A stretch of 64,000 nucleotides of DNA, taken from the NCBI RefSeq assembly GCF_030013595.1, contig NZ_CP122768.1; one strand, written 5' to 3'. Position 1 is the stretch's first letter. Each line of letters starts with the position of its first letter. Shown here in pieces: positions 23,650-29,927 of the stretch. The DNA comes from Escherichia coli (GTDB lineage Bacteria; Pseudomonadota; Gammaproteobacteria; Enterobacterales; Enterobacteriaceae). The translations under genes were made by a program, and so were the position numbers. The notes beneath the pieces are model-generated. The model was not told the origin of the DNA. It was given only the letters and a program-made list of their open reading frames with translations, and made no database searches.

Positions 23650-23693
23650 ACCATACGCACAGAATGTGATGCCAGCACTCTGTGCGTATGCTT

Positions 23694-24392
23694 TTATCGC
23701 GGGAAAAAGTACTTTACCTGGAACTCGAAAATATTGCTGTAAAGTAACGAATAATCCAGCGGAATAGAGTTACTGTCCACAGCCTGGGTCTGAATTTTAA
23801 GTATGGGATCCCGTGGGCTGATCCGTAAAATACTGGCGATTTCTGGGGTAGGAAAAGTAGGGGAGAAAGTTTCAAAGGTGCCAATGATTTTGATCCCGCA
23901 TTCGTTCTCAATATACGAAAATTTGGATTTTTGCATATGTGCTACGGTTAAATCAGGAAAACGTGCCACTGACATCCACGTTTCTTCTAATTGTGCTGCA
24001 TTATCCTCAATGAATCGCAGTCTCTTTATGTAATAAACCTGCTCACCAGTCACTAAATTCAGCTCAGTCGCAATAGGGGGAGAAGCATCCTGCACTTCAA
24101 ATTTCATAATCTGACTTCCTGCCTCCTTGCCGCTTTTATGCGCAATTTCACTGAAGCTGTTCATGTGATCAATGTGTGCAACAAAATTCTTTTTTTGAAT
24201 ATATGTTCCTGAACCATGCTTTCTATGAATAATTCCTTCGCCTTCCAGCAAGGATAATGCCTTACGCAGGGTATTACGCGAAACATTATAACGAACAGCG
24301 AGTTCAGCTTCTGACGGCAACAAATCACCAACATGCCATGAATAGCCATTGATCTCGGATTTAAGTAAGCGGGCAATCTTTTGAAAAATCAC
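23694..24392 (-). CDS. bgcR: GntR/HutC-family regulator (UTRA effector domain) of the beta-glucoside islet
   Basis: 232 aa; N-terminal GntR HTH (LPSEAELAVRYNVSRNTLRKAL); divergent from the PTS genes. Name recalled from the described bgc operon. Confidence 0.7.
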   Translation of the reverse strand: MIFQKIARLLKSEINGYSWHVGDLLPSEAELAVRYNVSRNTLRKALSLLEGEGIIHRKHGSGTYIQKKNFVAHIDHMNSFSEIAHKSGKEAGSQIMKFEVQDASPPIATELNLVTGEQVYYIKRLRFIEDNAAQLEETWMSVARFPDLTVAHMQKSKFSYIENECGIKIIGTFETFSPTFPTPEIASILRISPRDPILKIQTQAVDSNSIPLDYSLLYSNIFEFQVKYFFPR

Positions 24393-24590
24393 TTTTGCAC
24401 CTTTTAAGAGCCATTGAAAACAAGGAGTTGAGTCCTGATTGGTTTATCGTATGGCCGAGTCGTTTAATTATTACCCTGATGTTGAACAACTTTATTGCTG
24501 TATTACTGTGATCAATGTACCAGGACGTATAGCTACTGCGGGATATGATATTTACACAATGTAATCTGTTATATACCAGTAAGGGAAAAT

Positions 24591-24902
24591 ATGAAAAAGA
24601 TATTGTTAGTTTGCGCTGCGGGCATGTCAACCAGTATGCTGGTTAAACGTATGATTGATCATGCTAACGCTATTTCACTTGAAGTTAATATTTCCGCATT
24701 GGCGATTGCAGAGGCTAAAGGGAAAATTAAAAATAACGAAGTTGACGTTGTTTTACTTGGCCCGCAAGTTCGCTTTCAGAAACCAGAGATTGAAGCTGTT
24801 GCACAGGGGAAAATGCCTGTAGCTGTTATCGAGATGAAAGACTATGGCACCATGAACGGACAGGCAGTTCTTGAATTTGCGATGAAACTACTGCAAGAGT
24901 AA
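24591..24902 (+). CDS. bgcE: PTS EIIB, lactose/cellobiose family
   Basis: 103 aa MKKILLVCAAGMSTSMLV with the IIB(Cel) phosphocysteine motif. Confidence 0.8.
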   Translation: MKKILLVCAAGMSTSMLVKRMIDHANAISLEVNISALAIAEAKGKIKNNEVDVVLLGPQVRFQKPEIEAVAQGKMPVAVIEMKDYGTMNGQAVLEFAMKLLQE

Positions 24903-25016
24903 GAATCTAATATTATTAAACTATTACCTGAACTAACTTTTCACACATCATAAAATGGATATGGCATACATGCTTTATTGGGATGTATAAATATCCAGAA
25001 CAACAGGTATAAAAAA

Positions 25017-26339
25017 ATGGGATTAATGACCTCATTCGAACGTGGAATGGAACGTTTTCTTGTTCCAGTTGCTATCAAGTTAAACTCACAAAAACATGTT
25101 GCAGCGGTGAGAGATGGATTCGTTTTTACGTTTCCAATTATCATGGCAAGCTCATTAATTATATTAATAAACTTTGCCATATTATCGCCAGACGGCTTTA
25201 TTGCCGGACTGCTGCATCTGAACAGCGTTTTTCCCAACCTTGAAAAAGCACAAGCTATTTTTACTCCGGTAATGAATGGCTCTGTAAATATCATGTCAAT
25301 TATGATTGCTTTCCTGGTCGCCAGAAATATGGCGATTAGCTATGAGCAAGATGATCTTTTATGCGGATTAACGGCAATAGGAGCATTTTTTATTGTTTAT
25401 ACGCCATATCAGATGATAGATGGGCAAGCATTCCTGACGACCAAATATCTCGGCGCACAGGGGTTGTTTGTTGCTGTTATCGTTGCATTAATCACCAGTG
25501 AAATATTTTGTCGCTTAGCTCGAAACCCAAAAATCACCATAACGATGCCGGCAGCTGTACCTCCTGCGGTAGCGCGTTCATTTAAAGTTTTATTGCCAAT
25601 ATTTTTTGTCATGGTGTTCTTTTCCGCACTTAATTATTGCCTGACACTGATATCCCCGGCAGGATTAAACGATCTCATTTACACATTAATCCAGACGCCG
25701 CTCAAACATATGGGAACGAATATCTTTGCGGTAATTATCCTGGGAGCTGTGGGTAATTTCCTGTGGGTGCTGGGTATCCACGGACCTAATACCACGTCGG
25801 CAATTCGAGAAACTGTTTTTTCTGAGGCTAATCTGGAGAATCTCTCCTGGGCCGCTCAACACGGCACTACCTGGGGCGCGCCATATCCGATTACCTGGAC
25901 TTCTATTAATGATGCATTCGCCAACTGCGGCGGTTCAGGTATGACGTTGGGATTATTGTTGGCTATTTTTATCGCGTCTAAGCGTGCGGAATACCGTGAT
26001 CTGGCAAAAATGTCGTTTATCCCCGGTATTTTCAATATCAATGAACCGATAATGTTCGGCCTTCCTATTGTACTTAACCCCATCATGATGGTGCCGTTTA
26101 TTCTGGTTCCCATTGTTAATTGTGCCATTGGTTACTTCTTTGTTTCGATGGAAATTATTCCACCGGTTGCTTATGCCGTGCCCTGGACTACGCCCGGACC
26201 TTTAATTGCTTTCCTCGGAACCGGGGGAAACTGGCTGGCGTTACTGGTGGGTTTTTTATGTTTAGGTGTGGCGACAATGATCTATTTACCTTTTGTTATT
26301 GCCGCCAACAAGGTCAATAACATGACAACTAACGGATAA
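25017..26339 (+). CDS. bgcF: PTS EIIC, lactose/cellobiose family permease
   Basis: About 440-aa polytopic membrane protein; start uncertain (ORF track starts at 24978; Met at 25017 or 25026 more likely). Confidence 0.8.
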   Translation: MGLMTSFERGMERFLVPVAIKLNSQKHVAAVRDGFVFTFPIIMASSLIILINFAILSPDGFIAGLLHLNSVFPNLEKAQAIFTPVMNGSVNIMSIMIAFLVARNMAISYEQDDLLCGLTAIGAFFIVYTPYQMIDGQAFLTTKYLGAQGLFVAVIVALITSEIFCRLARNPKITITMPAAVPPAVARSFKVLLPIFFVMVFFSALNYCLTLISPAGLNDLIYTLIQTPLKHMGTNIFAVIILGAVGNFLWVLGIHGPNTTSAIRETVFSEANLENLSWAAQHGTTWGAPYPITWTSINDAFANCGGSGMTLGLLLAIFIASKRAEYRDLAKMSFIPGIFNINEPIMFGLPIVLNPIMMVPFILVPIVNCAIGYFFVSMEIIPPVAYAVPWTTPGPLIAFLGTGGNWLALLVGFLCLGVATMIYLPFVIAANKVNNMTTNG

Positions 26340-28407: not shown

Positions 28408-28431
28408 TCTATTTTAGTTAAGGAGTTGTGT

Positions 28432-29871
28432 ATGTCAGGATTTAAAAAAGGTTTTTTATGGGGTGGCGCGGTAGCCGCGCATCAGTTGGAAGGTGGCTGG
28501 AATGAAGGAGGAAAAGGCATCAGTATCGCTGATGTGATGACTGCTGGTGCTCACGGGGTGCCGCGTGAAGTGACAGAAGGCATTATCGACGGGCTTAATT
28601 ATCCCAATCATGAAGCAATTGATTTTTATCATCGCTATAAAACAGATATTCAGTTATTTGCCGAGATGGGATTCAAATGCTTTCGAACTTCCATTGCCTG
28701 GACACGAATCTTTCCGCAAGGTGACGAACAGGAGCCGAATGAAGAGGGTTTAAAATTTTATGATGATCTGTTCGATGAATGCCTGAAGCAGGGAATGGAA
28801 CCTGTGGTGACGCTTTCGCATTTTGAGATGCCTTATCATCTGGTGACAAAATATGGTGGCTGGCGAAACCGTAAACTGATCGACTTTTTCATCCGCTTCG
28901 CATCAACGGTCTTCACGCGCTATAAAGAAAAAGTAAAGTACTGGATGACGTTTAACGAAATCAATAATCAGGTGAATTTCAGCGAAAGCCTGTGTCCATT
29001 TACTAATTCCGGTATCTTGTATTCGCCAGAGGAAGATATCAATGAGCGCGAACAAATAATGTACCAGGCGGTACATTACGAGTTAGTTGCCAGTGCCCTG
29101 GCGGTACAGACTGGAAAATCGATCAATCCTGAATTTAATATCGGCTGTATGATCGCCATGTGCCCCATCTATCCTCTGACGTGTGCACCCAACGATATGA
29201 TGATGGCTACGAAAGCGATGCATCGTCGTTACTGGTTTACTGATGTTCATGCTCGTGGATATTATCCGCAACATATGCTGAATTACTTTGCCAGGAAAGG
29301 ATTCAACCTCGATATCACACCAGAAGATAACGCGATTCTTGCCAGAGGTTGTGTCGACTTTATCGGCTTTAGCTACTACATGTCTTTTACTACGCAATTT
29401 TCGCCAGATAACCCGCAACTGAATTATGTTGAACCACGAGATTTGGTCAGCAACCCTTATATCGATACATCCGAATGGGGATGGCAAATTGATCCGGCAG
29501 GGCTACGTTATTCACTCAACTGGTTCTGGGATCATTTCCAGTTGCCGCTGTTTATTGTCGAAAATGGATTTGGTGCGGTTGACCAGAGACAAGCTGACGG
29601 CACGGTGAACGATCACTATCGCATTGATTACTTTGCTTCCCATATTCGGGAAATGAAAAAAGCCGTTGTTGAAGATGGTGTTGACTTAATTGGCTACACA
29701 CCGTGGGGCTGCATTGACCTGGTTTCTGCCGGAACAGGGGAAATGAAAAAACGCTACGGAATGATTTACGTCGATAAAGACAACGAAGGGAAGGGAACGC
29801 TGGAACGGATACGTAAAGCGTCGTTTTACTGGTATCGGGATCTCATCGCCAACAATGGCGAAAATATTTGA
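28432..29871 (+). CDS. bgcA: 6-phospho-beta-glucosidase, glycoside hydrolase family 1
   Basis: 479 aa from [24 protein letters not shown]1 signatures TFNEIN and ENG present. Confidence 0.85.
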
Positions 29872-29896
29872 GACTTCAGGAAGATATTACGGAGAT

Positions 29897-29922
29897 GTCA
29901 GGCTCTGTGATCAGAGCCTGAC
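29897..29922. terminator. Hairpin between convergent bgcA and marB
   Basis: Perfect 11-bp inverted repeat gtcaggctctg/cagagcctgac with a 4-nt loop. Confidence 0.5.
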
Positions 29923-29927
29923 AATAA

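Follow-up and report, generated by a model that had tools for sequence, protein, structure and literature searches.

The segment at positions 23650–29927 of the window (the whole 64,000-nucleotide stretch of Escherichia coli DNA that was analysed) is very probably the chromosomal bgc locus, a self-contained system for the use of β-glucosides and cellobiose that would have arrived as an old accessory insertion. This probable identification draws on gene content and gene order, on the corresponding locus of strain CFT073, and on a paper that cites the original description; so identified, the islet represents the E. coli bgc operon as already described and no new kind of system. The bgc operon of Neelakanta et al. 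2009 consists of a divergent GntR-type regulator gene, bgcR, followed by bgcEFIHA, encoding EIIB, EIIC, EIIA, a porin, and a phospho-β-glucosidase (PMC3585215, in the text available). The earlier note had matched the islet to this operon, and the match holds: the window has the same five operon genes in the same order beside a divergent GntR-type regulator gene, and both the published operon and the islet are found in the uropathogen CFT073 and in E. albertii and are missing in K-12. No difference from the published operon was detected, and the allele in the window is 2–4% per gene away from that of CFT073. The exact islet protein sequences are already public as E. coli proteins, and none of the database records of identical proteins is named Bgc. 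The operon is counted as one of four cryptic β-glucoside operons (PMC4488073, in the text available), and the E. coli W genome paper, in the portion available, cites the bgc paper just in passing.

The islet comprises 6,278 bp and corresponds exactly to the interval between two stop codons, because eamA and marB converge on the block. Six intact genes lie between these stops (23649 and 29928), all uninterrupted, as the earlier note had read them (Table 1). Their lengths equal those in the RefSeq annotation of AF40, the closest genome among the matches listed, and the Pfam assignments of all six proteins are far above gathering scores. The adjacency of eamA and marB in K-12, as given in the earlier note, was confirmed with MG1655, in which the interval is 30 bp and lacks the six genes. 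A non-K-12 background had also been proposed and is borne out, with K-12-like genomes lacking the six genes and CFT073 carrying them in the corresponding slot (C_RS09195–09220). The EamA C-terminus reads KVRG in the window and O157 versus KVGS in K-12.

Table 1. Positions of the islet genes, their flanks, and noncoding features in the window
Feature	Position	Strand	Basis
eamA, O-acetylserine/cysteine exporter, left flanking core gene	22750..23649	+	ORF, Pfam, annotation
Left-junction hairpin, 12-bp arms CATACGCACAGA / TCTGTGCGTATG, 15-nt loop, then CTTTTAT on + strand	23652..23690		Repeat search, folding
bgcR, GntR/HutC-type regulator, GTG start, divergent from operon	23694..24392	-	ORF, Pfam, NCBIfam
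Divergent bgcR-bgcE control region, 36% G+C	24393..24590		Sequence
Inverted repeat GTTTA-N16-TGAAC, candidate regulator site	24462..24487		Cross-genus conservation
CRP-like site TGTGATCAATGTACCA	24507..24522	+	Conservation
bgcE, PTS EIIB, Lac/cellobiose family	24591..24902	+	Pfam, NCBIfam, ChbB structure alignment
bgcE-bgcF spacer, 114 bp, 27% G+C	24903..25016		Sequence
bgcF, PTS EIIC permease, 440 aa, lactose/cellobiose family	25017..26339	+	Pfam, NCBIfam, structure search
bgcI, PTS EIIA, Lac/cellobiose family	26367..26678	+	Pfam, NCBIfam, ChbA structure alignment
bgcH, outer-membrane sugar porin	26734..28407	+	ORF, Pfam, sequence reading
bgcA, GH1 6-phospho-β-glucosidase	28432..29871	+	Pfam, NCBIfam, motifs
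Right-junction hairpin, perfect 12-bp stem, 4-nt loop	29896-29907/29912-29923		Repeat search, folding
marB, right flanking core gene, end of marRAB	29928..30146	-	ORF, Pfam, annotation

In the proposed pathway, BgcH would pass the sugar across the outer membrane, the Lac/cellobiose-family PTS would import it with phosphorylation at O6, and BgcA would split the 6-phospho-β-glucoside into glucose-6-phosphate and glucose or an aglycone. The PTS has the separate IIB (Cys), IIA (His), and IIC permease proteins of the lactose/cellobiose family (TC 4.A.3). BgcE matches PTS_IIB (PF02302), and its Cys8, within LLVCAAGMSTS, aligns with the ChbB active site; BgcI matches PTS_IIA (PF02255), and its His76 aligns with the residue that is phosphorylated in E. 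coli ChbA, also a His. BgcF contains a PTS_EIIC domain (PF02378), scores 336.9 bits with TIGR00410 (cutoff 236), and matches the solved ChbC structure 3QNQ (E 4e-57). Phosphate would be relayed from HPr to His76 of BgcI, from there to Cys8 of BgcE, and finally to the sugar bound in BgcF. A search of the islet with Rfam, the bgcE-bgcF spacer included, gave no RNA family match.

BgcH has a signal peptide, read from the sequence, an N-terminal coiled-coil extension (Sugarporin_N, PF11471, 25.8 bits), and a LamB barrel at residues 147–557 (PF02264, 275.5 bits), which places it in the LamB/sugar porin family. Because it scores below the cutoffs of the NCBIfam maltoporin equivalog models and a phmmer search of PDB sequences returned no solved structure at E ≤ 1e-3, BgcH is a sugar porin and not LamB itself. 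BgcA is a Glyco_hydro_1 protein (PF00232, E 3.9e-130). In the GH1 literature, the Glu of NEP/NEI is the acid-base, the Glu of ENG is the nucleophile, and Ser, Lys, and Tyr form the 6-phosphate pocket. The corresponding elements of BgcA are the acid/base Glu176 (TFNEIN, residues 173–178), the nucleophile Glu377 (VENG, residues 376–379), and a phosphate-binding motif, S432..KKRY442 (residues 432–443).

These features bear on whether the islet might instead be a chb-like chitobiose system with a GH4 hydrolase. The chb operon of K-12 (chbBCARFG) has the same split Lac/cellobiose IIB/IIC/IIA, and homologues of ChbA, ChbB, and ChbC are the nearest solved transport parts; the solved structures nearest to the islet IIA and IIB include E. 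coli ChbA and ChbB themselves. However, chb lacks a porin and combines the GH4 hydrolase ChbF with the AraC-type regulator ChbR and the deacetylase ChbG, whereas the islet encodes a GH1 hydrolase, a GntR/HutC regulator, and a porin, with no ChbG-like deacetylase among its ORFs. The GH1 assignment, anticipated in the earlier note, is carried by Pfam and by the NCBIfam 6-phospho-β-glucosidase model NF007154 (1034 bits versus a cutoff of 624) and agrees with the NEIN, ENG, and 6-phosphate-binding motifs. The chitobiose equivalog models score far below cutoff (279 bits versus 760 for IIC; 106 versus 148 for IIA). A chb-like identity has, in consequence of these scores and motifs, almost no probability.

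The natural substrate of the bgc machinery is a separate matter. The growth substrates reported for bgc are cellobiose, arbutin, and salicin, under low-temperature conditions (PMC3585215, in the text available). An alternative with a small but real chance of being correct is that the same proteins naturally serve another β-linked oligosaccharide, such as mannobiose, glucosyl-mannose from glucomannan, gentiobiose, or a glycoside of host or plant origin, and that use of cellobiose and aryl-β-glucosides is a side activity of promoter-up mutants. The available descriptions of the operon as cryptic and active at low temperature (PMC4488073, PMC3585215) fit this alternative, as does the likening of BgcR to GmuR, which regulates the glucomannan operon of B. 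subtilis, and to pneumococcal BguR (PMC3585215). BgcF is assigned at the level of the lactose/cellobiose subfamily only in NCBIfam, its 336.9 bits being below the cellobiose equivalog cutoff of 434.45. BgcA matches the E. coli BglA structure 2XHY with E 4e-204, and several other solved GH1 structures, which we take to be enzymes of Gram-positive bacteria, outscore BglA. Against the alternative are the experimentally reported growth substrates, and the sequence points to no specific other sugar. Cellobiose, arbutin, and salicin are the favored substrates on the literature.

BgcR combines an N-terminal GntR winged helix (PF00392) with a C-terminal UTRA effector domain (PF07702), which makes it a member of the HutC subfamily; its nearest solved structures are YvoA/NagR and DasR. 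Transcription of bgcEFIHA would begin in the AT-rich divergent region, which differs from that of CFT073 at 8 of 198 positions, and would depend on BgcR, an activator according to the literature. The inverted repeat in this region is kept across Enterobacterales, with the form GTTCA-N16-TGAAC in most other genera, and may be the site of a regulator, conceivably BgcR. Transcription would also depend on CRP: the TGTGA half-site (CTGTGA motif) of the CRP-like site is invariant across 14 taxa, and a candidate −10 element, TATGAT at 24544–24549, puts this site near −41.5 relative to a predicted start near 24556. The abstract of the original 2009 description is said to report that bgc expression depends on CRP. 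A consensus scan for promoters and terminators found no more sites than in shuffled sequences; it missed both junction hairpins because the loop of the left one is too long and the right one has no T-run.

Comparison with other β-glucoside systems separates bgc from its relatives in K-12. The bgl (bglGFBH) and asc (ascGFB) operons share with bgc a GH1 6-phospho-β-glucosidase (BglB, AscB, and BglA being relatives of BgcA), a LamB-family porin (BglH), cryptic behavior, and the substrates arbutin, salicin, and cellobiose. They differ in having a fused EII of the glucose family and either the BglG antiterminator or the LacI-type AscG, whereas in bgc a Lac-family PTS is divided over three proteins and the regulator is of the GntR/HutC type. 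The bgu/BguR system of S. pneumoniae and the gmu/GmuR system of B. subtilis resemble bgc in their GntR/HutC regulator, Lac-family IIB/IIA/IIC, and GH1 hydrolase, and Bgc and Bgu proteins are described as highly similar (PMC3585215, in the text available). In contrast to bgc, neither has an outer-membrane porin, and BguR and GmuR act as repressors, unlike BgcR, reportedly an activator.

The history of the locus can be read from its relatives. In E. fergusonii and Citrobacter koseri, eamA lies directly beside marB without an islet, and the two are separated by the same GCCCC..GGGGC hairpin as in K-12 and O157. Because these outgroups have the K-12-like empty site and hairpin, "insertion" is the right polarity. 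E. albertii carries all six genes at this very position, with nucleotide identities to E. coli of 80–85% in the islet genes and 82–84% in the flanks; the corresponding values between the window and CFT073 are 96–98% and 96–97%. The insertion is old, since islet and flanks have moved equally far apart between the two species. On these alignments, acquisition is evidently ancient rather than recent, the islet having occupied the slot since before the two species split. An old accessory insertion would have displaced the 30-bp terminator ancestral to eamA/marB on the branch that gave rise to E. coli and E. albertii, and the islet now segregates as a presence/absence polymorphism. Our small addition to the known operon is this locus history, in which the K-12 empty site keeps the ancestral terminator of C. 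koseri and E. fergusonii.

Two other histories were weighed. The G+C content of the islet is below that of its flanks (42.6% versus about 48%), its distribution among strains is patchy, and Citrobacter, Salmonella diarizonae, Klebsiella, and Enterobacter have related operons at different loci, all of which would suit a recent, independent mobile genomic island whose site-specific or transpositional integration is marked by the junction hairpin. However, ORF and repeat searches revealed no integrase, transposase, tRNA, flanking direct repeat, or terminal inverted repeat; apart from the two junction hairpins, the search for flanking direct and inverted repeats gave short chance matches only. All carriers examined, as well as E. 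albertii, share one and the same insertion point, and islet divergence tracks that of the flanking core genes. The search of plasmids gave no evidence of plasmid carriage: the matches were two chromosome-sized records filed as plasmids and a pair of chromosome-like, non-mobilizable fragments of a single assembly, and an Enterococcus plasmid matched over a 528-bp GH1 stretch at 72% identity. A recent mobile island is accordingly highly improbable. The reverse history, in which the islet is ancestral at eamA-marB and a simple deletion left the K-12 state as its scar, we consider very unlikely. Independent deletions do occur (2017.17.01CC, LY180), and the O157 spacer shows a weak alignment to the right-junction hairpin (semi-global, shuffle p about 0.02). 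The K-12 spacer gave p about 0.1 against the right junction in the same kind of alignment, and in local alignment of the K-12 junction with the whole islet, 86 of 300 shuffles scored as high or higher. Moreover, a deletion could not recreate the spacer hairpin that K-12 and O157 have in common with C. koseri and E. fergusonii. Old insertion into an ancestrally empty site remains the preferred history.

At the marB-side junction, the earlier note had described a perfect 11-bp hairpin at 29897–29922. The hairpin is real and lies there, but its stem is 12 bp and spans 29896–29923. It has a ΔG of about −22.6 kcal/mol on either strand and a U-tract on neither, is conserved in CFT073 and E. albertii, and stands in place of the ancestral GCCCC..GGGGC terminator. 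The left-junction hairpin (ΔG −23 to −28 kcal/mol) is probably the terminator of both eamA and bgcR, which converge there. Counting perfect hairpins of 11 bp or more, the window has only four distinct ones, versus 0.25 expected from first-order Markov random sequences.

The position beside marRAB raises the question of regulatory contact. Salicylate and other phenolics classically relieve repression by MarR, and breakdown of aryl-β-glucosides frees phenolic aglycones: salicin yields saligenin, and arbutin yields hydroquinone. Because a hairpin without a U-tract and a phenolic-releasing system adjoin marRAB, the two loci could be coupled, either through convergent read-through or antisense transcription across bgcA/marB or through mar efflux induced by aglycones. 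More modestly, the filled and empty alleles could constitute a long-lived polymorphism that predates the split of E. coli and E. albertii and has been shuffled by homologous recombination, a reading that the empty-site haplotype of O157:H7, about 12% divergent, would fit. That either functional coupling or such a polymorphism applies is a long shot.

The islet occurs in 2,563 of 5,426 complete E. coli genomes (47%), near full length in 2,493, and is always chromosomal. Carriers include CFT073 and Nissle 1917 and, among the matches listed, O111:H8, ETEC, livestock, and wastewater isolates. The earlier note's description of an accessory bgc operon of extraintestinal lineages therefore stands as to gene content and CFT073 carriage, but not as to confinement to those lineages; prevalence among present complete genomes, from many hosts and pathotypes, goes beyond what the 2009 title implies. 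This presence in roughly half of complete genomes, across pathotypes and hosts, is a further addition of the present analysis. The islet is a useful marker of a non-K-12 E. coli background and adds one β-glucoside/cellobiose route to the strain's potential metabolism. Reduced forms of the locus were also seen. Strain 2017.17.01CC keeps no more of the islet than its last 139 bp, fused to a truncated eamA, and LY180 has lost bgcA beside an IS4-like element.

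Homology between the window and K-12 ends on the left at the eamA stop codon and on the right begins again with that of marB, which sets the indel at 23650-29927 (6,278 bp). These limits, exact against K-12 as given in the earlier note, enclose six uninterrupted ORFs between two genes that lie 30 bp apart in K-12 MG1655, where that note had them as adjacent. The final two EamA codons differ (GS* in K-12 versus RG* in the window), but EamA of O157:H7 also terminates RG* despite an empty site, so this difference reflects allelic variation and does not belong to the indel. The G+C content is 42.6% in the block versus 48-49% on both sides, with minima in the divergent control region (36%) and the bgcE-bgcF spacer (27%). 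This 114-bp spacer (24903-25016) is 99-100% conserved among the window, CFT073 and AF40, the closest complete genome. Neither the ORF list nor a repeat search turned up an integrase, transposase, tRNA or flanking repeat in the block, and an Rfam scan placed no family inside it. Outside the islet, the scan matched IS009 (9802-10000, +, 226 bits) and STnc560 (20939-21152, +, 280 bits), an Hfq-binding sRNA just past ydeE.

Genes of the islet and its two flanks (window positions)
Gene	Family or position	Coordinates	Strand	Source
eamA	left flank, converges on block	22750-23649	+	ORF list 21.5-32.5 kb
bgcR	GntR+UTRA regulator	23694-24392	-	ORF list, Pfam
bgcE	PTS_IIB	24591-24902	+	ORF list, Pfam
bgcF	PTS_EIIC	25017-26339	+	ORF list, Pfam
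bgcI	PTS_IIA	26367-26678	+	ORF list, Pfam
bgcH	LamB + Sugarporin_N extension	26734-28407	+	ORF list, Pfam
bgcA	Glyco_hydro_1 (E 3.9e-130)	28432-29871	+	ORF list, Pfam
marB	right flank, converges on block	29928-30146	-	ORF list 21.5-32.5 kb

The gene starts and lengths equal those in the RefSeq annotation of AF40, and NCBIfam agrees with the Pfam assignments. The hydrolase, BgcA, scores 1034 bits on the 6-phospho-beta-glucosidase model (cut-off 624), in keeping with the GH1 assignment proposed earlier. It has the GH1-type acid/base motif TFNEIN (Glu176) and nucleophile motif VENG (Glu377), together with an S432…KKRY442 motif, which in GH1 enzymes forms the 6-phosphate pocket. In alignments with E. 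coli ChbB and ChbA, Cys8 of IIB (in LLVCAAGMSTS) and His76 of IIA, respectively, fall on the active sites. IIC exceeds the cut-off of the NCBIfam lactose/cellobiose subfamily model; neither the chitobiose nor the cellobiose equivalog model was passed. The porin has a signal peptide at its start, and a heptad-rich segment comes next. Public databases already contain the exact sequences of all six proteins, as E. coli entries with generic names.

None of the K-12 chb, bgl and asc operons shares this architecture. The chb operon pairs a GH4 enzyme with an AraC-type regulator, and bgl and asc have glucose-family permeases under an antiterminator or LacI-type regulator. The best solved relatives of BgcA (3PN8, 4F79, 8YSV and 3QOM), which we take to be Gram-positive enzymes, outscore E. 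coli BglA (2XHY), and an Enterococcus plasmid matches 528 bp of bgcA at 72% nucleotide identity. This ranking and this match fit the Gram-positive affinities mentioned in PMC3585215. The same paper describes bgc as five genes, including PTS IIB, IIC and IIA (BgcE/F/I) and the phospho-beta-glucosidase BgcA; the gene set and order that it relays are those of the islet, and PMC4488073 counts bgc together with chb, asc and bgl as E. coli's cryptic beta-glucoside operons. The identification of the islet as the accessory bgc operon, proposed in the earlier note, is thus supported by its architecture, the CFT073 locus and these citing papers. On this reading the islet is a known accessory operon, and its biochemistry is ordinary.

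Regulator-IIB intergenic regions from 14 taxa were aligned. The hexamer CTGTGA (24506-24511) is invariant and forms the left half-site of a CRP-like motif, TGTGATCAATGTACCA (24507-24522), which a TATGAT hexamer at 24544-24549 would place near -41.5. The 2009 bgc study reportedly found a CRP-dependent promoter activated by BgcR, and the predicted placement of the two elements would fit such a promoter. Further upstream, an inverted repeat of the form GTTCA-N16-TGAAC is also conserved; it reads GTTTA…TGAAC in the window (24462-24487) and is our guess for a candidate BgcR site. Control regions of the bgc type retain the repeat in genera from Escherichia to Ewingella.

Among 5,426 complete E. coli genomes, 2,563 matched the block, 2,493 of them across 80% or more of its length; each carrier has one copy, on the chromosome, and non-carriers have the K-12-type empty site. 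Carriers among the matches listed include CFT073, Nissle 1917, an O111:H8 strain and an ETEC, as well as isolates from poultry, pigs, cattle, wildlife and wastewater. Extraintestinal pathogens are thus not its only hosts, and its spread goes beyond the extraintestinal lineages named in the earlier note. The apparent plasmid matches give no sign of plasmid carriage: two are chromosome-sized records labelled plasmids, and two more are non-mobilizable chromosome-like fragments of a single assembly.

Secondary losses occur. In strain 2017.17.01CC (locus L039, 2170-2640), eamA is cut short after ~111 codons and joined to the islet's final 139 bp, which adjoin marB and match window 29789-29927 at 100% identity; the islet was deleted independently here. 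IS1A lies beyond ydeE in this strain. LY180, a W-lineage derivative (L040, 7758-9260), lacks bgcA, so its bgc operon is broken; downstream of its porin gene come an IS4-like ISVsa5 transposase and an ECSE_1600-family autotransporter gene. Separately, in PS2Canimalfeces12 (L006, 3474-5674), a truncated ydeE abuts marA, eamA and marB are both missing, and a RelE/ParE toxin-antitoxin pair lies between marR and marC.

One genome per species was scanned with the porin. E. albertii has the same six genes adjoining marB-marA-marR, and on a complete chromosome of this species the arrangement is ydeE-eamA-[islet]-marB. Operons that are related and have the same core occupy other loci in a Citrobacter species and Salmonella diarizonae; the GH1 gene is shifted upstream or was not detected in Klebsiella, Raoultella, Enterobacter, Cedecea, Kluyvera, Buttiauxella and Ewingella. 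In E. fergusonii and Citrobacter koseri, eamA is adjacent to marB, and the spacers contain a GCCCC…GGGGC hairpin similar to the one in K-12 and O157. This hairpin is missing from the filled alleles of E. coli and E. albertii, which share the two junction hairpins described below. Because the outgroups share the GCCCC…GGGGC hairpin with K-12 and O157, the empty allele is of the ancestral type, and the islet was inserted in place of the old terminator. The reverse, a K-12 site produced by deletion, was rejected, as deletion could not regenerate the hairpin; when traces of a deletion scar were sought statistically, the signal was absent or weak. Between E. coli and E. albertii, nucleotide identity is 80-85% for islet genes, 84% for eamA and 82-83% for marB; between the window and CFT073, the values are 96.2-98.4%, 97.0% and 96.4%. 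By these values, the insertion is old, not recent.

The porin is intact in the E. albertii type strain (L007). In E. albertii CP117628.1, no gene is called at its position (L041, 13903-15657; longest ORF 492 aa), and it may be disrupted. The eamA-marB spacer measures 136 bp in E. fergusonii (L042, 10895-11030) versus 30-32 bp in K-12 and C. koseri, with additional sequence before the conserved GCCCC hairpin. The empty-site locus of O157:H7 Z1723 (L005, 1700-2700) is homologous to window ~22900-23649 and 29928-30150. Over ~1 kb, its eamA 3' part and marB diverge by 10-14% from other E. coli, versus 2-3% elsewhere, and are no closer to E. albertii, E. fergusonii or C. koseri. The segment looks like a deep or imported haplotype tied to the empty allele.

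The left junction carries a hairpin with 12-bp arms (23652-23663 and 23679-23690) followed by CTTTTAT, which resembles a terminator common to eamA and bgcR. At the marB side, the perfect hairpin noted earlier exists, but its stem is 12 bp (29896-29907/29912-29923, loop TGAT, dG about -22.6 kcal/mol), with the 11-bp version nested within. Neither strand has a U-tract there, so that any terminator role is putative. CFT073 retains this hairpin, and AF40 and E. albertii carry it with a single change. Such structures are scarce: the window has four distinct perfect hairpins of 11 bp or longer versus 0.25 expected. The other three (11-12-bp stems) lie at 57962-57992, 63760-63793 and 63866-63894, two of them <135 bp apart.
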